Below are positions 8,661-48,999 of a stretch of DNA of 48,999 nt, one piece after another (the first letter of the stretch is position 1; every line of letters begins with the position of its first letter). Both the position numbers and the translations under genes were made by a program. Source of the DNA: a virus; IMG/VR virus record IMGVR_UViG_3300001348_000001, one strand, 5' to 3'. The notes under the pieces are model-generated. The model saw only the letters and a list, made by a program, of their open reading frames with translations. It had not been told where the DNA came from and did no database searches.

Positions 8661-8821
8661 TGACTAATGCACTAGATTATATTAATGCTTTAACGGCTCT
8701 TGTAACAGCTTGTAGCGCTATCACGGCTTTAACTCCTACACCAAAAGATGATAAAATTATAGGTAAACTATATAAGTTCTTAGAAATGTTTGCATTGGTT
8801 ATTGGTAAGGCTAAAAAATAA
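8660..8821 (+). CDS. Small membrane protein (53 aa; one hydrophobic helix then TPTPKDDKIIGKLYKFLE)
   Basis: Hand-translated. TAATG coupling at both ends (8658-8662, 8819-8823). Confidence 0.5.
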   Translation: MTNALDYINALTALVTACSAITALTPTPKDDKIIGKLYKFLEMFALVIGKAKK

Positions 8822-8991
8822 TGCAAGAAGAAACTAAAGCAGTTATAGACGCAATAGCGGTGGGTGGCACAGTAGGTACGTTAGCTGGTTGGCTACCACC
8901 TTTAGCTGCTTTAGCAACCATTATTTGGACTTGTATTAGGATCTTAGAAACAGAGACTGTCCAGAAACTTTTTAAAAAAGATAAAGAGTAG
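8821..8991 (+). CDS. Small membrane protein (56 aa; AIAVGGTVGTLAGWLPPLAALATIIWTCI)
   Basis: Hand-translated, coupled to the upstream ORF, hydrophobic core of about 30 aa. Confidence 0.5.
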   Translation: MQEETKAVIDAIAVGGTVGTLAGWLPPLAALATIIWTCIRILETETVQKLFKKDKE

Positions 8992-8996
8992 ATATT

Positions 8997-11900
8997 ATGA
9001 GCAATAAAAATAAAGCCTTGACTGCTTTGAAGCGTAAAAAGTTTAATACTGGTAGTACTGCTACAGCCGATACTACTACTAGTCGTGGCCCCGGAAGTCC
9101 CGGATATGTAGGCCCTGTTGTTAACCCTCTAGACGATGTTGAAATTGATGATCCTGCAAAAAATAGTTTAGCAATTCAGCCAGAGCCTTTTGAAGTTACG
9201 GCTGCTAAAGTAGATAAAGCTGGTGTGGCTTTTAATAATAAAGCACTGGATAAAATATTAGCGCAGAAAAGTATAGACGCTACTTATGATCCTGAAACAG
9301 GTAACTACTCTTATAATGCTTTTGGAAATACTTTTGAAAGAACTCCAGCACAAATGGCACTTGCAGCAGGTTATAAAAATTTAAGCCCTTTTATGGGAGG
9401 TCAAAGTTTTCAAACTCAAAACGAAGACATATCAAAACTTGATACAGGAACTCCTGCAGTAAACACAAAAGCTGCTATAGGGGCTTCTGCTACAAAAGGA
9501 ACTGCTACAACTAGCACTGCGGACACAGCAAAATCACCGTTGGGTTTTGATGCTCAGAATGTTGCGAGAGCTTTTAAAGAAAAAACAGGTTTTAATTATA
9601 AGGTTAGTAGTGACGGTAAAATTAGATTTCAGGACGGTGCAGGTAGATCATTTACAAGAGATCCTGAGGACTTAGCTGAAGAGTTTAAGTTAGAGGGAGA
9701 CTTTGGAACAAGTTTAAAGGCATCTACCTACACTGCCGGTGAAGTAAAAGAAAGTGAGTTTGTTAAAGCCGCTGGTGCTAAAAGAGATAAAGACCCTATA
9801 ACAGGTTTACCTATTGAGCCAACAAAAGCCGAAGCTGGTAAAGCAACTCTTACTGATGCGGCTGTTGCAGCAGAGCGTGATAGTTTTGAAGAAACACTTG
9901 CTAAAGGTACTGCGGCTCAAAGACCCACCGAAGAACCCCGTGTACTAAGCGATAAACAGGCTAAAGTAGAGTACAGCCAGTCTGAAGCAGGTAGAGCTGT
10001 CTATACTGCAAAAGCTCAAGCAGAGCAACAATATGCTAATAAAGAAAGATCTATAAGAGAGCAAATACGTAGAGCAGCTACACCAGAAGAACGTGATAAG
10101 TTAAATGATGAGCTTGTTGCTAACAGCAGGAACAGATCAAAAATGCTTTCTGATTTTAGCCTTGCAGTTAAAGAAGGAGCAGCATTAACAAAACAAAACG
10201 CAGCCTCTGGAATAAAGCAATACGCAGAAGGTGTAACCACAGCTCAAACACAAGAAGTAGCTGATGTAGCTGGCCCCGCTGTTACGACAAGCGAAGGCGT
10301 TACTATTAGTGCAGATGATATAACTAAGTTAAAACTAGAGGCTGATAAGCGTGGCGTAGGCGTTGAAGAATTAAAAGAGTATCAAGATTTAATTGCTACT
10401 AAAGATCGTACAGAACAATCAGGAACTGCCGCTACAAGGGTTGATCCTGTTACAGGTCAGCCTATATCTCAAGCTTTAGATGTTACAGAAGAGGGTTTAC
10501 CTACAGCCGAAGCCGCTACGGCTGCTTTTGTTGCTTCTGATTATACACCTGATGGTGGTAATACTACTATAGATAATACACCGGCTTATAAAAAAGCTGC
10601 GAGCCGTGAAGCACAGGTAGGCACAGCAGCAGAGCGTACAGCAGCAGACCTTGGTACGGCTCCTTCAGTAGACTTTGAAAGCCGTGAAGCTATTACAGGT
10701 ACAGCACCTCAAGGAGATGCTTCTCAGATTGGTGGTGTCCCTACAATGGCTGCTGCAAGTCGTAACGCTGTACAGGGCAAAGAAAGAAAAGTAGCTGCCG
10801 CAGACATGATGGCAGTTGTTGCTGGAGTTCCTGAAGAAGTTACTGCTGCAATCTCTGAAGACCCTGCAACTGTACAGGCTCAAATAGATGAAGGAGCTGA
10901 TCCACAAGTAACCGCAGCGGTAGCAGCTTTACCTGAAGAAGCCCTTGTTTCTGTACAGATGGAGAACCTCTTAGCCGGTATGGAAGACGGTGAAACTCCT
11001 GCGTGGGCTAGACCTGCGGTAGCACAGATAGAGCAGATGATGGCTCAGAGAGGCTTGTCAGCGTCTACTGTAGGTCGTGATGCTTTGTTTAATGCTATTA
11101 TTCAAAGTGCTTTACCTATGGCTCAGAGCAATGCTCAAGCTCTTCAGCAGAGAGCACAACAAAACCTTAGTAACGAGCAGCAAGCTAACTTAGCATCTGC
11201 TCAAAATACTATGACTGTGCGTATGCAGAACCTTGCTAATCGTCAGACTGCTGCTTCTCAGACAGCTTCTATGGCCCAAGAGATTAAAGTACAACAAGGC
11301 AGCTTTAAGCAGCAAGCAACTATTACTACAGCGCAGCAAGAACAACAAACTGAGATGGCTACTTTTCAAGCTGCTCAACAGAAATCACAACAAGAGTCTG
11401 CACAGCGTCAACAAGCTGCTATAGCTGAATTAAATACTAATGCTCAAATGGATCTAGCAAACCTGCAAGCCATGAATGCTGCTGATTCCGAAAGCATGAG
11501 TGCTGAACAACAAGCTCGTTTAACTGGTTACAATGCTCAGATTGCTAAGGTTATGCGTCAAGCAGACTTAAAGCAGGACATGGAAAAAGCCAACTTAAAC
11601 GCTTCTTTACAGCTAGAGCTTTCTAATTTATCAGAAAAGAATGCTGCTGCTAAAGATACAATGACAGCAGAAAACCAAGAAAAGCTGACTAACCTACAGA
11701 CTCTTGTAGAGTTTAGAAAAGGAGATGCACAGTTTGCTCAACAGATGGATATGGCTAACATGTCTAATGAGCAGCAAATGGAATTAGCTATGTTGCAAGA
11801 AAGGGCAGCTACAGACGCCGCTAACTTTACAGCAGACAATCAATTTGAACTAACTCGCTTAAATAATGTAGTAGCTAGATCAATAAGACAAGCTGAACTT

Positions 11901-13328
11901 AATCAGCGTATGGAAGAAGTAAATCTTGATGCAAAGTTAAAATTAGAATTATCTGAATTAACTGAAGCAAATGCAACTTCTAGAGCTAACATGAGTGCTG
12001 AACAGCAAACGCGATTAGCTAACTTAAATGTTTTAGTAGACTTTAAAAAGACTAATGTAGCTATGGCCCAGCAAATGGACTTAGCTAACCTAGGCAACGA
12101 GCAACAGATGGAGCTTGCTAACCTAGCTGAAAAGGCCGCTACAGATTCAGCCAACATGACTGCTGAGAATAAACTTAGATCTCAAAAGTTAAATAACTAT
12201 GTTCAAGTTATGTCTCAAGATGAGCAGCTTAAAATGCAAGCAGATCTTGCTAATCTTTCTATGGAAGAAAAGATCTCTTTAGCAAATCTAAGCAATCAGC
12301 AACAGTCTGACATGGCCTCTATGAGTGCTGAGAATGTAGCTGAACTACAGCGTTATGAAAAACAAATGGGTGCTGCACAGCTTAATGCTAACTTAGCACA
12401 GCAAATGGGCTTGGCTAACCTTAGTAATCAGCAACAAGCATCTATGTTTAATGCTCAAATAGACGCTAATTTAGACATGAAGCAGTTTGATGCTAATCAG
12501 CAGATGGCATTAGCTAATAGTCAGTTTATGCAATCAATGACTATGAAAAACCTAGACAACAAACAGCAAGCGGCTATGCAAAATGCTACTGCAATGGCTT
12601 CTATGGATCTACAAGCGGCTGATAATTTAACTAAAGTGTCTATTGAAAATGCTAGGAACTTTTTAGCTATGGACATGGCTGAGTTAAATAATGATCAGCA
12701 GGCTGCTATGTTAAACGCACAGCAAGCCCAGCAAACTTTGTTATCTAATTTTGCAGCCGCTAATGCCTCAAAACAATTTAATGCTACCTCTGAGCAGCAG
12801 ACAAATCAGTTTATGGCTAATCTTGGTCAGACAATGAATCAGTTTAATGCTTCACAGGCTAACGCCATGACGCAATTCAATGCTTCAGAAAAGAATAGGT
12901 TGGCTGCTATAGACGCTGGCAATGCTTTAGAAGCTGATAAAATGAATACTCAGATTAATGCACAAGTTGATCAATATAATGCTGACAATGAACTTAAAAG
13001 AGAGCAATGGAATGCTGCGAATGAACAGGCAGTAGAGCAATCAAATGTTGCGTGGCGTAGACAGGCTAATACTATAGACACTGCGGCTCAAAATGCTGCA
13101 AATCAATTAGCAGTTCAACAAGCTTTTTCGTTAAATGCTACAGAGCAAAACATGTTATGGCAGCAATTAAGTGATGAGCAAAATTATTTAAGGCAGGGTT
13201 ATGAAAACGAGCAGCAAAGAAGAACTACTTTGTATGCTACAGCTTTAGCTAATGAAAGTGCCACAGGCCCTTCTGGGACTGTAAATTCAATTGTTACTGC
13301 AATCTTAAAAGCAATGGGAGGAACTTAG
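8997..13328 (+). CDS. Large internal virion/ejection-type protein (1443 aa), Q/A/N-rich coiled-coil repeats
   Basis: Size and position in the block between fibre and lysis genes. The C-terminal two thirds is made of degenerate (L/M)AN(L/M)SNEQQ(M/A) repeats. Confidence 0.55.
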   Translation: MSNKNKALTALKRKKFNTGSTATADTTTSRGPGSPGYVGPVVNPLDDVEIDDPAKNSLAIQPEPFEVTAAKVDKAGVAFNNKALDKILAQKSIDATYDPETGNYSYNAFGNTFERTPAQMALAAGYKNLSPFMGGQSFQTQNEDISKLDTGTPAVNTKAAIGASATKGTATTSTADTAKSPLGFDAQNVARAFKEKTGFNYKVSSDGKIRFQDGAGRSFTRDPEDLAEEFKLEGDFGTSLKASTYTAGEVKESEFVKAAGAKRDKDPITGLPIEPTKAEAGKATLTDAAVAAERDSFEETLAKGTAAQRPTEEPRVLSDKQAKVEYSQSEAGRAVYTAKAQAEQQYANKERSIREQIRRAATPEERDKLNDELVANSRNRSKMLSDFSLAVKEGAALTKQNAASGIKQYAEGVTTAQTQEVADVAGPAVTTSEGVTISADDITKLKLEADKRGVGVEELKEYQDLIATKDRTEQSGTAATRVDPVTGQPISQALDVTEEGLPTAEAATAAFVASDYTPDGGNTTIDNTPAYKKAASREAQVGTAAERTAADLGTAPSVDFESREAITGTAPQGDASQIGGVPTMAAASRNAVQGKERKVAAADMMAVVAGVPEEVTAAISEDPATVQAQIDEGADPQVTAAVAALPEEALVSVQMENLLAGMEDGETPAWARPAVAQIEQMMAQRGLSASTVGRDALFNAIIQSALPMAQSNAQALQQRAQQNLSNEQQANLASAQNTMTVRMQNLANRQTAASQTASMAQEIKVQQGSFKQQATITTAQQEQQTEMATFQAAQQKSQQESAQRQQAAIAELNTNAQMDLANLQAMNAADSESMSAEQQARLTGYNAQIAKVMRQADLKQDMEKANLNASLQLELSNLSEKNAAAKDTMTAENQEKLTNLQTLVEFRKGDAQFAQQMDMANMSNEQQMELAMLQERAATDAANFTADNQFELTRLNNVVARSIRQAELNQRMEEVNLDAKLKLELSELTEANATSRANMSAEQQTRLANLNVLVDFKKTNVAMAQQMDLANLGNEQQMELANLAEKAATDSANMTAENKLRSQKLNNYVQVMSQDEQLKMQADLANLSMEEKISLANLSNQQQSDMASMSAENVAELQRYEKQMGAAQLNANLAQQMGLANLSNQQQASMFNAQIDANLDMKQFDANQQMALANSQFMQSMTMKNLDNKQQAAMQNATAMASMDLQAADNLTKVSIENARNFLAMDMAELNNDQQAAMLNAQQAQQTLLSNFAAANASKQFNATSEQQTNQFMANLGQTMNQFNASQANAMTQFNASEKNRLAAIDAGNALEADKMNTQINAQVDQYNADNELKREQWNAANEQAVEQSNVAWRRQANTIDTAAQNAANQLAVQQAFSLNATEQNMLWQQLSDEQNYLRQGYENEQQRRTTLYATALANESATGPSGTVNSIVTAILKAMGGT
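11556..12215 (+). repeat. Tandem 330-nt (110-aa) duplication inside the 1443-aa protein
   Basis: RQADLKQDMEKANLNASLQLELSNLSEKNA...QQMDMANMSNEQQMELAMLQERAATDAANFTADNQ aligns with RQAELNQRMEEVNLDAKLKLELSELTEANA...QQMDLANLGNEQQMELANLAEKAATDSANMTAENK. Unit starts at 11556 and 11886. Confidence 0.85.
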
Positions 13329-15082: not shown

Positions 15083-17128
15083 ATGGGTATTGAATCATTA
15101 GGTGAAAGCCTGTTAGCAGGCCGTAGAAAAACACGTAAGAAAATGCGTAAAGAAGAAAACTTAGGTGCTCTAATAACTGGCGGGTTAACTATAGCTAATG
15201 CTATGTTAAAGAAAAAGTCAGACGATTTTTTACAGAATGAAAATGTTCTTTCTCAACAAATGGCATATGAAAAAAGTGCTGCTTCAGCGGCTCAAACACA
15301 AAAAGATTGGGAGAATGCTAACAATCATATAGGAGGCGTTAATGGCTGGTTTAAAGACAAGCTACGTCCCCAAGTTAAATCACAAGCCGATCTGTTAATT
15401 AGAGAAGAACGTCTGTCTAATATGGATGAGTATAATCAATATATAGAAGATCAGTTAGACACTTTAATAGGTGAAGAAGATGGTGATGGTTTGTATGGTA
15501 AATTTTCTACAGCCTTTAAAACTGCTTCTAGTTTAGCACCTACCTCTCAGTTTAATGATTATATTAAAAATAAAAATCCAGCTTATAGGAATGTAGGTAG
15601 TGCTGTTGCTGGCTGGTTGCGTAAAGAAAATCCTAGTACTGAAAGAGCTTTAGAAACTATTGCATCTAGTAGATATGTACAAAATCAACAGGCTTATACT
15701 ACAGCTTTGGAAAGTTATCGGGGTGGTTTATCTGCAACTGCTAGTCTTGAACTTGCTGATATAGCAGCGCAAGAATTTAAACAAAAGCCTGAAGAAGTTA
15801 TAATAAAGTCAGAAATAATTTATATCGATCATGGTAAAGAAGGGTCTAGGGTTAAAATCCCTGTTATGCAAAAAACAGCTAAAAATAGAGATGGCAGTGT
15901 GCGTACATTTCAAACCGCAGTCAAAGATAATCCACTTAGTAAAAAGTTTTTTGATAATAAACCTATACAAGTAGCACAGCAAGTTGAAATAGAAACTGTA
16001 AATGCTTATACGGGTGAGAAAATTAAATCAAAAAGGACTTTAGTAACTGATCCTTTTGGGGTTCCTATAAATAATGGAAAGCCGTATCATTTAGACGCAC
16101 AAAAAACAGGCACAACAATTGATTCTCCACCTACTATTAGTGCTATTAATATAAAGTTTGCAGAAACTATGATGTCTCCTATTGATAGTAGTTTTAGTTT
16201 TAGATCACCAGACGATAAAGCCCTTTTAAAAGCAGCTATTGCAAGCACAGACGATACTGAAGCAGGTAAAAGAAAAGCAGTAACTTTTCAAAAACTTACT
16301 TACGGGGTTTCTCAACGCTTACAAGAACAAGTAATGGGAGGCCCTTCAGACACAAGAGTCCCTTTACGTTCGCCTAAGACTAGCCCTTTTTCTAAAAACT
16401 TAGCTTCTGATTTAGCGGCTGAAATAACGACAATGGGTCTTTTGTATACACAGAAAGCTTCTGCTGACGAAGCGCCCGGAACCCCTTTAATTCAAAATTT
16501 ACAAGGGGTTGTAACAGATGGTCAAGACGTTAACGGAGTTTTAGTAGCTTTAGGTTTAGAATCTTTAAATGGTAGAAGTAATTATAACGCTTATCAGTTA
16601 CCCGGACAAGCTACTGTTTCTTTATTTAATTCCGCACTGTCCCCAAAAAACTTAGAAGTTTTTAATGAGTCAGCTTCTGAACACGCTAAAACTTATGTTA
16701 AGGATATGATTAAGGCCAGCTTAGAGGCTGGTAGAGTAGACGGTGGTAATCGCTCTTTATGGGCTATGCCTTTAACTGGGACAGGCGTTACAGGGGCTGA
16801 GTTGCTAGGTGTTATGTCTAAGCAAGAAGAAGAAGAGCAAACGCAAGAGCAAGAACTTTTAAGTACTTCAAATGATTTTTTAGGCTTTGGAAAAACTTTT
16901 ACTCCTAGAGACAAAGAGAAAGAGCTAACTGAGCCAGATCAACGCAAAAGAACAAACTTAGATGATAAATATGATCAAGCTTTAAGGCAGTTAAAGGGAG
17001 CAGCTAAATACCCAAACAGATTTCCAGAGTTATATGCTAGAGCAGTTAAAAAAGAAGAGCGGCTAAGAAATACTTTGGGAACAAGGTATCCAAGACCCGA
17101 TAGTTTATTGGACCTAAACACTAAATAG
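15083..17128 (+). CDS. Internal virion protein-like (681 aa)
   Basis: Size and synteny only. Confidence 0.5.
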   Translation: MGIESLGESLLAGRRKTRKKMRKEENLGALITGGLTIANAMLKKKSDDFLQNENVLSQQMAYEKSAASAAQTQKDWENANNHIGGVNGWFKDKLRPQVKSQADLLIREERLSNMDEYNQYIEDQLDTLIGEEDGDGLYGKFSTAFKTASSLAPTSQFNDYIKNKNPAYRNVGSAVAGWLRKENPSTERALETIASSRYVQNQQAYTTALESYRGGLSATASLELADIAAQEFKQKPEEVIIKSEIIYIDHGKEGSRVKIPVMQKTAKNRDGSVRTFQTAVKDNPLSKKFFDNKPIQVAQQVEIETVNAYTGEKIKSKRTLVTDPFGVPINNGKPYHLDAQKTGTTIDSPPTISAINIKFAETMMSPIDSSFSFRSPDDKALLKAAIASTDDTEAGKRKAVTFQKLTYGVSQRLQEQVMGGPSDTRVPLRSPKTSPFSKNLASDLAAEITTMGLLYTQKASADEAPGTPLIQNLQGVVTDGQDVNGVLVALGLESLNGRSNYNAYQLPGQATVSLFNSALSPKNLEVFNESASEHAKTYVKDMIKASLEAGRVDGGNRSLWAMPLTGTGVTGAELLGVMSKQEEEEQTQEQELLSTSNDFLGFGKTFTPRDKEKELTEPDQRKRTNLDDKYDQALRQLKGAAKYPNRFPELYARAVKKEERLRNTLGTRYPRPDSLLDLNTK

Positions 17129-39842: not shown

Positions 39843-40010
39843 CTAAAAACTCCTTAAACTTTCATCCCAAACTATTGTAAACAACATCATCAGTGGTACT
39901 GTGATTGGTAATAAATATATATTAAATACACTCACACAAAGCAGCGAGATTATTAATAATAAATATATTAAAAATATAAATACACTAACCATAAAATCTA
40001 CAAACCACAT
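39843..40010 (-). CDS. Small two-helix membrane protein (55 aa, MWFVDFMVSVFIFLIYLLLIISLLCVSVFNIYLLPITVPLMMLFTIVW...)
   Basis: Hand-translated. GAGGTGG upstream. Its stop lies 1 nt before the next ATG. It replaces the implausible plus-strand ORF 39901-40239. Confidence 0.5.
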   Translation of the reverse strand: MWFVDFMVSVFIFLIYLLLIISLLCVSVFNIYLLPITVPLMMLFTIVWDESLRSF

Positions 40011-40076
40011 AAACCACCTCGTAATATTAATTAAATTCAGGCGAGTAGTTTATTCACATACTCAGGTGACTCAGGA

Positions 40077-40535
40077 TTACTTCGCAGTTAGAATTTCTAA
40101 GATTTTATCCATCTTAGATTCTAAGGAATCTACCCGTTGCTCTAAAGTCTCTGGAGACTTCGTAGTCTCTTTTGCTTTATTCTTAGACCCTTTGGGTCTG
40201 CCTCGGCCCTTCTTAGGAGCCTCTGCAACCTTTGGTTGAACCTTGGGTGTAGCCTTCGGCTCAACACTAGGAATCTTAATAGTAATTAAGATGTCTGAGG
40301 GAACCACAGTGGCTTGAAAAGCCAATTGCACATCGCCATGAGTCATCTTAGAGTTCAATACTTCTCCGAAGTAATGACCTACAGCACCTCTCATCCTGTT
40401 AAACAGGACATAACGGTCCTGTGAAGTTAAATTTAACTTCGTGGCGAGTAGGTTAGTGTAGTGTGAGCATACAGCGTTGAACTGCTTGCCAGATGCCAGC
40501 TTGTTGTCGTCGATGTTGTATGTGAATGTCGCCAT
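40077..40535 (-). CDS. First early protein (152 aa) with HMGA-type AT-hook and C-terminal coiled coil
   Basis: AGGAG RBS 7 nt before the ATG at 40535 (the track start at 40637 has none). KKGRGRPKGSKNK is encoded at about 40172-40214. The C-terminus LEQRVDSLESKMDKILEIL is heptad-like. Confidence 0.65.
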   Translation of the reverse strand: MATFTYNIDDNKLASGKQFNAVCSHYTNLLATKLNLTSQDRYVLFNRMRGAVGHYFGEVLNSKMTHGDVQLAFQATVVPSDILITIKIPSVEPKATPKVQPKVAEAPKKGRGRPKGSKNKAKETTKSPETLEQRVDSLESKMDKILEILTAK

Positions 40536-40675
40536 GATAAAACTCCTGAGTTGCCAAGCAGCCGAATTGCTGGAGGCCATATCAAGGTGCTGGAATCCGA
40601 TTTGATTGTCAAGGCTTTCTGGTGCGCGATTAATCATGATCGCATTATGCGCCTGTTAACACGCGAAGAAAGCCT

Positions 40676-40940
40676 GCATCATGTGCACATGTCATCAGTG
40701 CATGTTGTGATCGTCCCTAGCAGTTGCCGAAACCCTTGTCAACACTTATTTTTTAGAACGTAGTTCTAGGGGTCGTGTGCATGTGCGGCCATGCGCGATG
40801 GCAAACTTTTTGAGCTTTGTCACATGAATTATTTTCATAATCATAGATTATGATGGGGTTGTGCATGTGTATATACCTGCGCGATTGGCAGCTTTTTGGC
40901 GGGTCTGTCAAGTATTTTTTAACTACTTTGTAGTTAGTTC
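40676..40940. repeat. Three degenerate direct repeat units of about 80-85 bp
   Basis: gtgcatgt at 40698, 40777 and 40861. tgcgcgat(t)ggca..ttttg at 40792 and 40878. tgtca[a/c] plus a T-tract at 40737, 40818 and 40906. Confidence 0.7.
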
Positions 40941-41134
40941 TGGAATTCTCATAGTATTATTATACTATGGATAGAAATACTCGTAAGTCTCTGAAAATCC
41001 TCGGAGAGTTTTAAAGAATCTTTAAAACTAACACACTAGGGAGTCCTCTGGGACTCTATCAAGTACATAAGAATTACAAAGTAATTTTATTTAATATTAC
41101 TTTAAAGAACTTTAAAGTATTCTGGAGTACTCTG

Positions 41135-41196
41135 GAGTTTCTTAAGAAACTCTGAGGCTTGGACTCTGGAAATCTTTAGAGTTTCTTAGGAAACTC
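41135..41196. repeat. Two near-identical 18-bp palindromes (gagtttcttaagaaactc at 41135-41152; gagtttcttaggaaactc at 41179-41196)
   Basis: Read directly. They differ at one central base and sit 44 bp apart, embedded in ACTCTGGAG word repeats. Confidence 0.85.
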
Positions 41197-41321
41197 TGGA
41201 GTCCTTGGAGGGTGGGCAGGAGGCCAGTACCCCCCACCCCCATATATACTAAATGTTATACATTTTTGGAAACTCTGGAGTGTCAAGCAGGTACTTCTGG
41301 GCGGGGCTAATAGACCCACTA

Positions 41322-41408
41322 AGGGCGGGTATTTAAAGACCCACTAACCGGACAACATCCTATAAGGATCTTATAGCTTCCTGTCCGGTTAGGGCGGGTA
41401 TTTAAAGA
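41322..41408. repeat. 18-bp direct repeat agggcgggtatttaaaga (41322-41339 and 41391-41408) flanking a nested hairpin
   Basis: Outer stem aaccggaca (41346-41354) / tgtccggtt (41382-41390). Inner stem ctataag (41360-41366) / cttatag (41370-41376). Confidence 0.85.
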
Positions 41409-41458
41409 AGATAAACTTATACATATATCTATATGTAACCGGGGGGACCGATTACGTT

Positions 41459-41487
41459 AGTATATAGCTGAAAGTGCGTTTTGTCAA
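41459..41487 (-). promoter_or_regulatory. Leftward sigma70-type promoter TTGACA-17 nt-TATACT
   Basis: Minus strand: -35 at 41487-41482, -10 at 41464-41459. Confidence 0.55.
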
Positions 41488-41501
41488 GTTAAATTTACTA
41501 C

Positions 41502-41529
41502 TTGACAAAATGGCTATAAGCTCTATAAT
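41502..41529 (+). promoter_or_regulatory. Rightward sigma70-type promoter TTGACA-16 nt-TATAAT in front of terS
   Basis: -35 at 41502-41507, -10 at 41524-41529. Both hexamers are consensus. Confidence 0.6.
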
Positions 41530-41536
41530 GATAAGT

Positions 41537-41926
41537 ATGAATAAAGAACTGACAGATAAACAACACTCTTTCTTAGAACACCTAGTGGAACAAGGAGGTG
41601 ATCCGAAGAAGGCAGCGGAGTTGGCTGGGTACAATAGTGGTCATTATCAGGTTGTAAAATCATTAAAAAAAGAAATATTAGACATAGCTGAAGGAATCCT
41701 AGCCCAGTCAGCTCCAAAAGCTGCTTTAAAACTTGTAGAAGTCATGAACTCTGATGTGCCTATTCCACAGGCTAACATGAGGCTACAAGCAGCACAGACA
41801 ATCCTAGACCGTGTAGGCTTAGGTAAATCAGAACGTATAGATGTAAGTCATAAGGCTGAAGGAGGTTTATTTATACTACCTTCTAAACAAGAGGTTATTA
41901 TTGATGGAGAATACGAGGAAGCTTAG
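41537..41926 (+). CDS. terS: Terminase small subunit (Terminase_2-like, 129 aa)
   Basis: MNKELTDKQHSFLEHLVEQGGDPKKAAELAGYNSGH matches the N-terminal HTH pattern of this family. Located upstream of terL. The track start at 41474 lies upstream of the promoter, so the ATG at 41537 is preferred. Confidence 0.65.
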   Translation: MNKELTDKQHSFLEHLVEQGGDPKKAAELAGYNSGHYQVVKSLKKEILDIAEGILAQSAPKAALKLVEVMNSDVPIPQANMRLQAAQTILDRVGLGKSERIDVSHKAEGGLFILPSKQEVIIDGEYEEA

Positions 41927-42137
41927 GGGACATGTACCTTTCGGCTATAAGAAAGAAAAAAAAGAATTAATACCTGTGCCTCTAGAACTAGAAGCATTAG
42001 AAGATATTAAACAAGCAGTAATTAATAAGCAGTTATCTTTACGTGATGGCTCTATGTGGTTAGAGCATAAAACAGGTCGTAAACTAAGTTATCAAGGTTT
42101 AAAGAATATAATTGACAATGAAAGATTGGGAAATTAA
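41901..42137 (+). CDS. Small DNA-binding protein resembling the Recombinase-domain HTH of serine recombinases (78 aa)
   Basis: GHVPFGYKKEKKELIPVPLELEALEDIKQAV...SLRDGSMWLEHKTGRKLSYQGLKNII follows the PxGY ... helix ... pattern. No catalytic domain. Confidence 0.45.
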   Translation: MMENTRKLRGHVPFGYKKEKKELIPVPLELEALEDIKQAVINKQLSLRDGSMWLEHKTGRKLSYQGLKNIIDNERLGN

Positions 42138-43794
42138 TCCAGATAAGTATCTTAAAGATGAAGATAATAACTTTATCTTTAAGGTAGACGGTACACCTAG
42201 ATTAAAAGGTGGTAGACCTAAAGGCTCAAAAGGCAGAGGATATAATTATCATAGTCAAACTAAGGCTAAGTTAACTGCTAACCGAGTTATAAAAGATAAA
42301 CAAAAGAAAATAGCTAAGACTGAATCTAAGCTACATGCTTATAAAGAATCTTTAAAAAACACAAAGCAAACAATAAAAAAGCTAGAAAACTCAGACTCCG
42401 ATAAAATTATAACCCCCGAAGAGCTATCAAACACCCCCAAGCAAGTTCAACAAGAAGCAAAAGAAAATGTTATCTTTGCTCCAAATGAAGGGCCTCAGAC
42501 AGAGTTCCTTGCAGCAGCCGAGACAGACGTTCTGTACGGCGGAGCAGCAGGGGGTGGTAAGAGCTATGCAATGCTCGTAGATCCTCTCAGATACGCTCAC
42601 AGAGCCGCACACAGGGCCTTAATTATTAGACGGTCTATGCCAGAGCTACGAGAGCTAATAGACAAAAGCCGAGAGTTATATCCCAAGGCTTTTCCCGGTT
42701 GTAAATACCGTGAAGTAGAAAAGCTTTGGAACTTCCCCAGCGGAGCTAAGATAGAGTTCGGCTTCCTTGAGCGTGATGCAGATGTATATCGTTATCAGGG
42801 ACAAGCATATAGTTGGATAGGTTTTGATGAAATTACTCACTTACCCACAGAATTCTCTTGGAACTACCTAGCTTCAAGATTACGTACTACTGATTCAGAA
42901 ATTGTTCCTTACATGCGTTGCACTGCTAACCCCGGCGGCGTGGGCGCTCACTGGGTAAAGAATAGATATATATTACCATCAGATCCTGATACAAGCTTTG
43001 TAGGCAAAGATGGCCTTACAAGAAAGTTTATACCGGCTCGTTTAGAAGATAATCCTTTCCTAGCAATGGATGGTCGTTATGAAAAGATGCTTAAAGCCTT
43101 ACCTCCTACACAACGTAAGCAATTACTAGAAGGTAACTGGGATGTTAATGAGGGCGCAGCCTTTACTGAATTTAGTTTAGAAGAACATGTAATACCGCCA
43201 TTTCAAATCCCGATTCACTGGGATAGAGTTAAAGGAATAGATTATGGCTACGCTAGTGAGTCAGCCTGTGTTTGGGCTACTATAGACCCAAGTGATGGCA
43301 CCCTCATTGTTTATAGAGAATTATACCGTAAAGGCTTGACAGGACAGGATTTAGGCACTATAATAACAGAGATGGAAGTAGAAGACCCCTTCTCAGTTCA
43401 AGGTGTACTAGATACAGCAGCATGGTCCCGTACTGGGACTACAGGCCCTACAGTCGGTGAAACATTAGTAAGACAGGGCCATAAGCTGCGTAGAGCAGAT
43501 AAAAACAGAATACAGGGCAAAATTCAAATCCACGAATACTTGAGGCTTCAGCCAAGCGGACGACCAAGATTACAGATTTTCAGTAGCTGTCCTAGCCTGA
43601 TACGCGAGCTTCAAAGTATTCCTCTGGATAAGACTAATCCTGAAGATGTCAATACTCATGCGCCTGACCACGCCTATGATGCCTTACGGTATCTTATTAT
43701 GTCAAGGCCAAGAGTAAATGACCCACTAGCACAAATGCGGCACTTACGTATGGAACAGGCTTATACACCAGCAGACGCAGATTTCGGATATTAA
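42112..43794 (+). CDS. terL: Terminase large subunit (560 aa) with a basic N-terminal extension of about 130 aa
   Basis: Walker A YGGAAGGGKS, Walker B WIGFDEITH, nuclease GIDYGY ... PDHAYDALRY. There is no in-frame ATG/GTG/TTG between codon 3 and the Walker A, so the extension belongs to TerL. Confidence 0.9.
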   Translation: MTMKDWEINPDKYLKDEDNNFIFKVDGTPRLKGGRPKGSKGRGYNYHSQTKAKLTANRVIKDKQKKIAKTESKLHAYKESLKNTKQTIKKLENSDSDKIITPEELSNTPKQVQQEAKENVIFAPNEGPQTEFLAAAETDVLYGGAAGGGKSYAMLVDPLRYAHRAAHRALIIRRSMPELRELIDKSRELYPKAFPGCKYREVEKLWNFPSGAKIEFGFLERDADVYRYQGQAYSWIGFDEITHLPTEFSWNYLASRLRTTDSEIVPYMRCTANPGGVGAHWVKNRYILPSDPDTSFVGKDGLTRKFIPARLEDNPFLAMDGRYEKMLKALPPTQRKQLLEGNWDVNEGAAFTEFSLEEHVIPPFQIPIHWDRVKGIDYGYASESACVWATIDPSDGTLIVYRELYRKGLTGQDLGTIITEMEVEDPFSVQGVLDTAAWSRTGTTGPTVGETLVRQGHKLRRADKNRIQGKIQIHEYLRLQPSGRPRLQIFSSCPSLIRELQSIPLDKTNPEDVNTHAPDHAYDALRYLIMSRPRVNDPLAQMRHLRMEQAYTPADADFGY

Positions 43795-47996: not shown

Positions 47997-48860
47997 ATGT
48001 CCGAACAGGCATACGAAGAGGAAGAAGTCGCAAACCCGTATAATGCACGTAAACCTTGGCACACACAAGATCGCAAACAATCTTTAAATGCTGCTGAAAG
48101 TTTGTATTACCCGGAAGATGAAGACGAAGAACCTCAACAGAAAAAGGCTACCCGCAAAAAGGCCCCTTCTTCTGAGGATGAACCCAATACTAATTATAAA
48201 AAACGCTATGATGATTTAAAGAAACATTACGATCAGAAGCTTTCTGAATTTAAACGTAAAGAGCAAGAACTATTGGATCAAGCTAGAGTAGCTGAACCCC
48301 AATACCAAGCTCCTAAGTCTCAAGAGGACTTAGATCGTTTTAGGCAAGAGTATCCTGATCTATATGATACGGTAGAAACTGTAGCTCACATGAGGAGCCA
48401 GCAAGAAGTAGAAGCATTGCGATCTAAGCTTTCTGTTATTGAACAGCGGGAAGCAGAAATTGCAGCGCGAGAAGCTGAGACGGCTTTACAGGAACGTCAT
48501 CCTGACTTTGATCAAATCAGAGGAGATGATGGGTTCCATGAATGGGCGCAGGAACAACCGGATCAAATACAAGATTGGATTTATAACAATCCAAACAATG
48601 TTACTTTAGCTGTTAAAGCGTTAGACCTTTATAAGTTAGAAACTGGGAAAGGACAGAATACTCAAAAAAGACGTTCAAATCGTAAGCAGCCACAAAGTTC
48701 TGCTGCTGATATGGTATCTACTAAAACAACCAATATAGATGCTAAGGAAGCTAAGATTTGGACAGAAAGTGAAATTGCGAAAATGTCCCTCGACCAATTT
48801 GATAGACACGAAGAAGAAATCAATATTGCGATGATTGAGGGAAGGGTTCGTAGAGGATAA
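47997..48860 (+). CDS. Scaffolding protein (287 aa)
   Basis: AAGGAG RBS. Highly charged, helical, E/Q/K-rich protein directly upstream of the capsid gene. Confidence 0.65.
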   Translation: MSEQAYEEEEVANPYNARKPWHTQDRKQSLNAAESLYYPEDEDEEPQQKKATRKKAPSSEDEPNTNYKKRYDDLKKHYDQKLSEFKRKEQELLDQARVAEPQYQAPKSQEDLDRFRQEYPDLYDTVETVAHMRSQQEVEALRSKLSVIEQREAEIAAREAETALQERHPDFDQIRGDDGFHEWAQEQPDQIQDWIYNNPNNVTLAVKALDLYKLETGKGQNTQKRRSNRKQPQSSAADMVSTKTTNIDAKEAKIWTESEIAKMSLDQFDRHEEEINIAMIEGRVRRG

Positions 48861-48999
48861 TCTTTTCTACTTAGGAGTAATATAATATGGCTTTTAACCA
48901 ATCAGACGCTCTATTTGAGCAAGGTACAGACACTAACGGTAACTTTGGTAATTCAGTAGCAGGTCAAACGAACTCGTTTTTCCTACCCAAAGTATATTC
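48597..48999. repeat. Second copy of the 403-bp terminal redundancy
   Basis: Identical to 1-403. Confidence 0.97.
48887..48999 (+). CDS. Major capsid protein, N-terminal fragment (duplicate of 291-403)
   Basis: Same sequence as 291-403, truncated by the window end. Confidence 0.6.
   Translation, partial: MAFNQSDALFEQGTDTNGNFGNSVAGQTNSFFLPKVY

Follow-up and report, generated by a model that had tools for sequence, protein, structure and literature searches.

A gene-free gap in the marine podophage genome IMGVR_UViG_3300001348_000001, extending over 1,001 bp between the ATG of the first leftward gene (position 40535) and the ATG of the small terminase gene terS (position 41537), is a real, conserved and densely structured control region. 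Positions are those of the window, the whole 48,999 nt stretch of DNA that was analysed. We propose that the gap (40536–41536) is a combined transcription-start and packaging-start region, made up of a packaging (pac) module and a pair of divergent promoters, a reading to which we would give about an even chance. The promoter layer is well supported, as judged from predicted sites and their conservation in relatives. A packaging role is the best-supported reading of the region, by analogy with one relative, Sinorhizobium phage PhiM6. We assign it to a short conserved element, block A, which is proposed as the pac site on the strength of a read-terminus result in PhiM6 and of co-inheritance with the packaging module.

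The first-pass annotation had singled out the gap as an exceptional gene-free stretch in a tightly packed genome, and this is borne out: the second-largest intergenic gap of the genome measures 336 bp (8661–8996). Open reading frames (ORFs) of 25–70 aa are present, for example at 40551–40763; relatives carry indels of 1, 12 and 17 nt and lose whole modules inside the gap, so that no reading frame is conserved and small conserved ORFs are ruled out. At the left boundary, tblastn alignments of relatives begin at residues 1–8 of the frame of the first leftward gene. A gap of 520–1,160 bp separates this gene from terS in all of the approximately 30 IMG/VR relatives checked, and the unannotated stretch upstream of terS is ~590 bp in HTVC115P, ~800 bp in HTVC103P and ~2.5 kb in PhiM6. 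Nucleotide searches of the gap against GenBank phages, in near and distant modes, found nothing, and Rfam 15 gave no match at the gathering threshold, with sub-threshold matches to generic long-hairpin (miRNA precursor) families at 41125–41206. The sole candidate intrinsic terminator in the gap (40788–40802, + strand) loses its T-run in relatives. Comparison by eye with the consensus sequences of sigma-54 promoters, DnaA boxes, CtrA sites and IHF sites gave no consistent match, and the helical phasing of AA/TT was not significant.

Two predicted sigma-70 promoters, the rightward P_R and the leftward P_L (Table 1), are confined to the last 80 bp before terS. The transcriptional divergence that had been ascribed to the region as a whole is thus placed at its extreme right edge. 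Both promoters have sigma-70 hexamers at a spacing of 16–18 bp, and only five sites matching the consensus at 11 or more of 12 positions exist in the entire genome. Across 86 distinct upstream regions, whose TerS proteins are 54–100 % identical to that of the window, P_R scored 12/12 in 77 and 11/12 in the other nine, and P_L scored 11–12/12 in 85; the same arrangement is present in the cultured pelagiphages HTVC115P and HTVC103P. The two −35 boxes are set 10 A+T-rich bases apart within a perfect inverted repeat, the arms of which are kept among relatives whilst the spacer varies. No other strong promoter was conserved in position in the 900 nt to the left of block A in 82 relatives, where sites of at least 10/12 occurred on the + strand in 7/82 and on the − strand in 12/82. 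The TGTCAAG repeats of the gap, which read TTGACA on the − strand, were considered as extra leftward promoters and rejected, as they have no usable −10 box at 16–19 bp and none is conserved family-wide. Elsewhere in the genome, TTGACA-17-TATAAT (12/12) lies inside terL (43336–43364, + strand), and TTGACA-17-TATACT (11/12) immediately precedes the gene for the gp2.5-like single-stranded DNA-binding protein (SSB) in the early arm (34173–34145, − strand).

The geometry of the pair makes predictions for both arms. The −10 box of P_R ends 7 nt before the terS ATG in the window and 6–8 nt before it in 79 of the 86 relatives, a distance that leaves no room for a leader or a Shine–Dalgarno sequence; the terS mRNA is therefore probably leaderless, with the P_R start predicted at or near the ATG. 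On the other side, P_L would start at ~41452 and read leftward across the gap. As P_L is the sole conserved candidate driver of the early arm, most of the gap would be its leader of 0.5–1 kb, and the leftward early operon would have a palindrome-rich leader. Just downstream of the predicted P_L start, the block at 41420–41455 is kept across groups and shows one compensatory pair change, with an unexceptional fold energy (z −0.9); it could be an operator or the 5′ stem of the leftward RNA. An invariant promoter pair of this quality would imply that these phages rely on unmodified host RNA polymerase for both arms.

Block A consists of a G-run, the 12-mer GGCAGGAGGCCA (41215–41226), which is kept throughout the group, a core of G and C only (41227–41241), the A+T-rich stretch ATATATACTAAATGTTATACATTTTT (41242–41267) and GAAACTCTGGAGTGTCAAGCAGG, in that order. 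Family-wide, the core is 10–15 nt long and free in sequence, being C-rich, G-rich or palindromic (for example, GGGGTACCCC), and it is followed by TATATATACTAAT-N3-ATACATTTT, by GAGTGTYAA..AG and usually by GGGCGGG-type repeats. When graded relatives were aligned, 41205–41291 alone stayed recognizable whilst its surroundings changed. The exact pattern GGCAGGAGGCCA-N8-30-TATATAC occurs in more than 117 IMG/VR contigs, compared with roughly 10 expected by our own estimate, and block A lies 219–483 nt upstream of terS, in the same orientation, in every terS-bearing locus; the first leftward gene varies. A profile built from a 64-sequence alignment of HTVC103P-type sequences found homologues in the divergent gaps of the Roseobacter phage CRP-1 (E 7e-6) and the SAR116 phage HMO-2011 (E 2e-4). 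When the CRP-1 block A was searched by blastn against 50,697 GenBank phage records, significant matches were limited to CRP-345, HMO-2011, CRP-2, CRP-603 and CRP-13, and the matches in HMO-2011 and the CRP phages all fall within unannotated DNA.

Our data favour a duplex DNA site over an RNA element for block A, because its folding is no better than that of shuffled sequence and the core is not consistently complementary to the G-run. In the window, GGGTGGG (41210–41216) does pair with CCCACCC (41233–41239), and the G-run flips strand among relatives. A conserved RNA helix was rejected, since what follows the 12-mer varies with the relative between C-rich, palindromic and G-rich sequence, and the fold z-score is ~0 on both strands. 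A sigma-70 promoter within block A was likewise rejected, with no acceptable hexamer pair on either strand.

The gene at 41537–41926 matches the TerS family PHROG 2538 (E 1.8e-4) and, weakly, the TerS structures of PaP3 and NV1 (6W7T and 7JOQ), and its product is orthologous to CRP-1 TerS (37 % identity, E 6e-23) and to the product of PhiM6 gene 1 (38 %, E 2e-20). The large terminase subunit TerL is 63–68 % identical to those of Pelagibacter phages HTVC115P, HTVC103P and HTVC104P, 42–47 % identical to those of the Roseobacter CRP phages and HMO-2011, and 43 % identical to that of PhiM6. Block A appears to accompany orthologous TerS and TerL proteins in the HTVC103P-type, HMO-2011-type and PhiM6 lineages. 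In HMO-2011, TerS, TerL, the portal, the capsid and a 78-aa protein encoded between terS and terL are 39–51 % identical to those of the window, but HMO-2011 has no match to the primase-helicase or SSB of the window and its DNA polymerase is only 24 % identical. HTVC103P-type phages have been described as sharing packaging and structural genes with HMO-2011 whilst having a different replisome (bioRxiv 10.1101/2019.12.14.876532). As block A has been kept across this exchange of replisomes, its reader should be conserved too, and among the DNA-handling proteins it is the terminase subunits that are conserved.

The second line of evidence comes from PhiM6, for which PhageTerm predicted pac cleavage and a terminally redundant genome, the cleavage being set as position 1 (PMC6256558). 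The block A of CRP-1 aligns to positions 50–93 of PhiM6, on the terS-sense strand, with a score of 35, compared with 23.0 ± 2.1 in 300 dinucleotide shuffles of the 6 kb junction, of which 0/300 reached 35. The block A-like sequence was spotted in PhiM6 before its published pac position was seen. Transferred to the window by distance, the PhiM6 cut falls at ~41161, in the loop of an inverted repeat with 35 nt arms, a position that is a guide only, as the flanks are not homologous. The idea of a packaging signal in this region thus gains from a co-inherited element and from a predicted cut 50–93 nt away from its counterpart in PhiM6.

Our data are consistent with a model in which a TerS ring would bind block A, and perhaps the direct repeats beside it too. 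TerL would then make the initiating cut some tens of bp to the left, at ~41160 by distance from PhiM6, and headful packaging would proceed rightward into terS. P_R would start the late arm at the terS ATG, or a base or two from it, and the P_L transcript would cross ~0.9 kb of palindrome-rich leader before reaching the first early gene. The dyad palindromes would most likely serve the packaging or transcription complexes as structural or architectural sites, or be leader hairpins.

Several observations weigh against this model. The link to PhiM6 is one 44 nt alignment, between CRP-1 and PhiM6; the HTVC103P-type profile fails to detect PhiM6, and an alignment test with 67 queries was not significant. 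Phage MQM1, with a TerL 42 % identical to that of the window, was predicted by PhageTerm to have direct terminal repeats of 327 bp and not headful packaging. Block A lies ~8 kb upstream of terS in HMO-2011 and ~5 kb upstream of it in CRP-1, in both cases heading the late arm, a location that would fit a late-operon control site equally well. Contigs cross the block A site freely, and the contig ends near it have no common sequence. The window has exact repeats of 18 nt and 11 nt next to block A, but family-wide these direct repeats are not clearly above shuffles, and universal iterons are unsupported. Finally, the prediction of a leaderless terS presumes the usual distance between a −10 box and the start of the transcript. 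A cos site might be suspected from the 15 nt G/C-only core between conserved flanks, whose likeness to a cohesive-end segment is one of composition only; PhiM6, however, was predicted to be of the pac type, and the site is spanned by many contigs. In HMO-2011 and CRP-1, the first late gene begins with TTGACAATG and is preceded, downstream of a consensus promoter, by several words of the CACTTAAGTG or CACTTTAAATG type, a set that differs from that of the window.

Table 1. Coordinates of predicted elements in and around the gap
Feature	Position	Strand	Description
Ribosome-binding region of first leftward gene	40536–40560	−	AGGAG (CTCCT on +, 40543–40547), 7 nt before ATG 40535
Left-hand modules	40600–40940	.	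Composite palindrome TGTCAAGGCTTTCTGG...CGAAGAAAGCC at ~40606–40686; hairpins 40754–40768 and 40835–40853
Two degenerate ~84 bp tandem modules	~40770–40853, ~40855–40938		Each with GTGCATGTG, TGCGCGAT(T)GGCA and TGTCA(A/C)
Palindrome array	40920–41205	.	CTYTRRAG-type words; eight members and a long inverted repeat
Members of palindrome array	40920–40936, 40950–40969, 41007–41029, 41041–41056, 41078–41103, 41098–41119, 41135–41152, 41178–41197		
Inverted repeat with 35 nt arms	41126–41160 and 41171–41205		
Block A	41205–41291	+	~90 bp, placed ~260 bp before P_R; candidate pac site for recognition by the terminase
Three direct repeats	41299–41322, 41323–41347, 41392–41408	+	GGGCGGG-(N9)-AGACCCACTAA or GGGCGGGTATTTAAAGA
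49 nt hairpin unit enclosed by direct repeats	Arms 41344–41366 and 41370–41392		RNA fold −30.6 kcal/mol, z −5.8
Conserved block just downstream of P_L start	41420–41455	.	Palindrome TACATATA-TC-TATATGTA; inverted repeat GTAACCGG-N5-CCGATTAC
P_L	41459–41487	−	TTGACA 41487–41482, 17 nt spacer, TATACT 41464–41459; 11/12
Perfect 11 bp inverted repeat	41479–41510	.	TTTTGTCAAGT / ACTTGACAAAA; contains both −35 boxes
P_R	41502–41529	+	TTGACA 41502–41507, 16 nt spacer, TATAAT 41524–41529; 12/12

As well as block A and the promoters, the gap contains repeated and symmetric sequences in numbers beyond what two promoters would need, as the first-pass annotation had maintained. Perfect hairpins, defined by a stem of at least 7 and a loop of at most 8, number nine in the gap out of 34 in the genome, whereas dinucleotide shuffles of the gap gave 0.62 ± 0.81 (maximum 4), an excess of about 15-fold. 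All of the symmetric sites listed earlier are present, namely the G-rich/C-rich pair of block A, GAGTCC-TCTG-GGACTC at 41041–41056 and the palindrome AGTTTTAAAGA/TCTTTAAAACT at 41007–41029, the arms of which are 11 nt and not 10 nt long. The repeat families are genuine too, as whole-genome counts show their words to be essentially confined to the gap: ACTCTGGAGT (three copies), GTGCATGTG (two) and AGACCCACTAA (two) occur only there, and the gap holds three of the four genomic copies of both GGGCGGG and TGCGCGAT. Seven further perfect hairpins lie at 40096–40440 in the 460 bp coding sequence of the first leftward gene (40077–40535). They include AAGTCTCTGGAGACTT (40145–40160), which is made of words from the family seen in the palindromes of the gap, and an 18 bp perfect palindrome, GAAGTTAAATTTAACTTC (40423–40440), which has 12 nt in common with the spacer between the −35 boxes (41486–41497).

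It had been suggested that alignment with relatives would show which repeats are conserved. Block A and the gap itself are kept, whereas the hairpin units occur only in a few related lineages, in differing copy numbers. The gaps of four near-identical loci, with flanking genes 99–100 % identical, differ in length only by the count of units consisting of a 25 bp repeat and a hairpin of ~44 nt, with one hairpin in the window and up to four elsewhere. Two hairpin types with different stems (CCGGACA... and GGTGTCAAGAT...) are found, and direct repeats of the GCGGGTATTYTAAAG type recur in other groups, though not universally. A CRISPR-like array was considered for the repeat and hairpin units and rejected, as the ‘spacers’ are related palindromes.

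To the left of block A, every lineage has its own array of palindromes composed of CTYTRRAG-like words. For 13 palindromes followed across seven graded relatives, 93 % of the cells stay paired, and 15 pairs have changed on both sides, compared with 7.5 ± 1.5 in shuffles (0/500 as high) and at most three in slid controls; symmetry has therefore been maintained whilst the sequence drifted. Relatives have different hairpin interiors and carry loops in reversed orientation (for example, GTCCTTCGGAC versus GTCCGAAGGAC), which argues against a strand-specific function of the loops. The CTTTCT...AGAAAG element follows the same pattern, with its outer stem kept, its interior replaced and its loop flipped. 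Hairpin promoters of the N4 type, for a virion RNA polymerase, were rejected: no RNA polymerase match was found in the scanned proteins, the hairpins are lineage-specific, copy-variable and flipping, and TerL is not N4-like.

The arrays also show a strand asymmetry, which was analysed in the 450 nt to the left of block A in 101 relatives and at 41122–41208 in the window. In 116 distinct imperfect hairpins, G.T mismatches outnumber A.C mismatches by 64 to 26 on the late-sense strand. For the inverted repeat with 35 nt arms, the fold energy is −43.7 kcal/mol for the + strand and −27.9 kcal/mol for the − strand, and 84–94 % of relatives have a G+T-rich + strand in the gap. The only conserved promoter that crosses the palindromes, P_L, would yield − strand RNA, opposite to the wobble asymmetry. 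The same stretch is a hot spot for contig ends: of 112 contigs that carry block A, 15 end within 300 nt to its left (3.7 expected, a fourfold excess) and one ends within 300 nt to its right. These ends lie 25–285 nt from block A (~40930–41190 in the window) and have no sequence in common. Physical genome ends were accordingly rejected as their cause, and assembly failure in repeats is the simplest explanation.

A variant of the packaging model, and to our minds an improbable one, would make pac recognition structure-specific, with the palindromes extruding as late-sense hairpins or cruciforms, TerS anchored on block A and the terminase nuclease cutting the extruded structure. The terminase nuclease has a resolvase-like fold. 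Such a mechanism is hinted at because the wobble excess is strand-specific (64 versus 26), the loops flip, the mapped cut falls in the loop of the 35 nt arms and assemblies break there unusually often. It would make the pac site of one of the most abundant groups of marine phages a structure-specific one.

The competing account that we take most seriously, whilst still considering it unlikely, is that block A and its neighbours serve purely transcriptional control, as operators or enhancer-like sites that time P_R relative to P_L, with no part in packaging. Block A is always upstream of the late-arm promoter, even where terS is 5–8 kb away as in HMO-2011 and CRP-1, and two consensus promoters with overlapping upstream regions invite regulation. 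Regulation could come from a host factor or from phage proteins, such as the 78-aa recombinase-domain-like protein or the first early protein with its AT-hook; genes to the left and to the right of the gap encode AT-hook motifs. An early/late switch, which the first-pass annotation had placed here, is plausible from the promoter geometry; however, neither a regulator nor an operator was identified, SAR11, SAR116, Roseobacter and Sinorhizobium are all among the hosts, none of the known host-factor sites that could be tested resembles the 12-mer, and the predicted pac cut of PhiM6 lies beside its block A homologue. A role as RNA, in which the gap would act mainly as a long structured leader or a non-coding RNA, with hairpins that govern the RNase III-type processing or the stability of early transcripts or act as a decoy, is the least probable of the alternatives. 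P_L would transcribe the gap, compensatory changes occur and G.T mismatches exceed A.C mismatches (64 to 26); the hairpin unit, moreover, has the lower stem, internal loop and upper stem that characterize the RNase III sites of T7. Yet the asymmetry favours the + strand, for which there is no promoter, the loops flip orientation between relatives, many perfect palindromes have loops of 0–2 nt as expected of duplex DNA sites, and the only Rfam matches were the sub-threshold, generic ones.

An origin of replication in the gap, the remaining part of the combined role that had been suggested for the region, is unsupported, and we consider it rather unlikely. It would comprise the G/C clamp and an A+T-rich unwinding element (41227–41267) with iterons, activated by transcription from P_L. 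The primary origin of T7 is a promoter followed by an A+T-rich stretch, and here direct repeats adjoin a 26 nt A+T-rich stretch, with a strong promoter ~200 nt upstream; no dedicated initiator accompanies the T7-type replisome of the phage, and the cumulative GC skew has its minimum at ~40,000–40,500. That minimum coincides, however, with the switch of coding strand, and the skew keeps one sign across the gap in the window and in 81 relatives. Block A travels with the packaging and structural module, persisting in phages with a different replisome, and the flipping of the G-run argues against a strand-specific R-loop primer. Neither an initiator gene among the scanned proteins nor a DnaA-box array was found, the best DnaA-box-like word scoring 8/9 by eye and occurring only in HMO-2011 and CRP-1, so that an iteron- or DnaA-dependent origin is not indicated. 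What survives of the proposed hub is the divergent promoters, at the right edge, and the comparative pointer to packaging. We give an equally low probability to physical genome ends with short direct terminal repeats, in the style of T7 or MQM1, with block A marking the repeat boundary or a concatemer-processing site. The terminal repeats predicted for MQM1 and the contig-end hot spot just left of block A point this way, as do the large non-coding leaders, with repeats and host promoters, of T7-like left ends. Against this, PhiM6, the closer analogue and one with a detectable block A, is predicted to be pac-initiated and terminally redundant, the contig ends are heterogeneous in sequence, and the window closes by an overlap inside structural genes.

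Under the packaging model, PhiM6 offers the nearest comparison. As in the window, its terS opens the late arm after a large divergent gap free of genes, in which strong sigma-70-like promoters separate the block A-like sequence from terS. It differs in the size of the gap and in its terS, which has a Shine–Dalgarno sequence and a TTG start in place of a leaderless ATG. The two promoter-like sites noted between its cut and terS are both rightward, leftward sites not having been systematically scanned; dense CTYTRRAG palindromes are not evident; and its cut is a computational prediction from reads. In phage λ, cosQ, cosN and cosB lie upstream of Nu1, and in SPP1, pacL, pacC and pacR surround gene 1 and its promoters, the terminase-operon promoters lying inside the pac region and packaging proceeding toward the terminase genes. 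The window resembles both in having a candidate recognition element and repeated sites no more than a few hundred bp ahead of the small terminase gene, but there is no sequence similarity, and the window TerS is nearest, weakly, to the PaP3/NV1 type.

The λ promoters PRM and PR are also divergent, and the cI mRNA is leaderless. Like them, P_L and P_R stand back to back in a short region, with one predicted to start its mRNA at the initiation codon. Unlike them, both have perfect or near-perfect consensus sequences, no repressor/operator set was identified, and the leaderless gene would be the small terminase gene of a late operon. The left end of T7 has a terminal repeat, short repeat arrays and the host promoters A1–A3 in the ~0.9 kb before gene 0.3, and the injection-stop region of T5 is rich in repeats and palindromes. 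The gap is comparable, being a gene-free stretch of ~1 kb with strong host promoters and arrays of repeats and palindromes, ahead of the early genes of a compact lytic genome. The T7 and T5 regions are at fixed physical ends, whereas the assembly of the window is circular, and terminal redundancy and pac initiation are predicted for the nearest relative analysed; furthermore, in the window the repeats stand between the promoter and the early genes.

The kind of region described here is thus familiar from λ, SPP1 and T7. Block A itself is new, as is the invariant promoter pair with its predicted leaderless terS, in a very abundant and little-studied phage group. Podophages of the HTVC103P and HMO-2011 types are among the most abundant viruses of the sea, and we found no discussion of their non-coding DNA in the published accounts consulted. 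If block A is the pac site, it would provide a one-line sequence marker that orients thousands of metagenomic contigs and locates the start of packaging, and it would predict which host or phage DNA is open to transduction. The predicted leaderless small terminase gene offers a handle on timing in phages of streamlined hosts. These findings leave current ideas in place and add a control region to what is known of an important and poorly characterized group.

The genome belongs to the HTVC103P-type class of marine podophages. Its first and last 403 bases are identical and lie inside structural genes, showing the window to be a circularly closed assembly of 48,596 bp; the ends at 1–403 and 48597–48999 are an assembly overlap and not terminal repeats. 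The + strand genes, from 41537 round to 24775, encode TerS, the 78-aa protein, TerL, portal, capsid, tail and internal proteins. The − strand genes run from 40535 down to 24776, with small early genes first, followed by those for ThyX, the gp2.5-like SSB, a T7-type primase-helicase, a family A DNA polymerase, a Cas4-like exonuclease and a ribonucleotide reductase (RNR). No tRNA or tmRNA genes were found. PHROG matches to the primase-helicase, DNA polymerase and SSB, with no RNA polymerase match among the window proteins scanned, agree with the earlier description of a T7-type replisome lacking an RNA polymerase gene. Two structural-arm proteins, of 1443 aa (8997–13328, + strand) and 681 aa (15083–17128, + strand), match no family (PHROG, E 1e-5); they are the sole remaining places that could hide an enzyme such as a virion polymerase.

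The 78-aa protein (41901–42137, + strand) resembles large serine integrases in their recombinase-domain part (match to PHROG 95, E 4e-5) and is kept beside terL in HMO-2011, with 42 % identity; the packaging module may have in it a third component for DNA recognition. An AT-hook-type motif, GRPKGSK, occurs in the first early protein (KKGRGRPKGSKNK, ~40180–40215, − strand) and again, as GGRPKGSKGRG, in a putative N-terminal extension of the TerL frame (~42205–42237, + strand). The TerL alignments of relatives begin only at residue 44–49.

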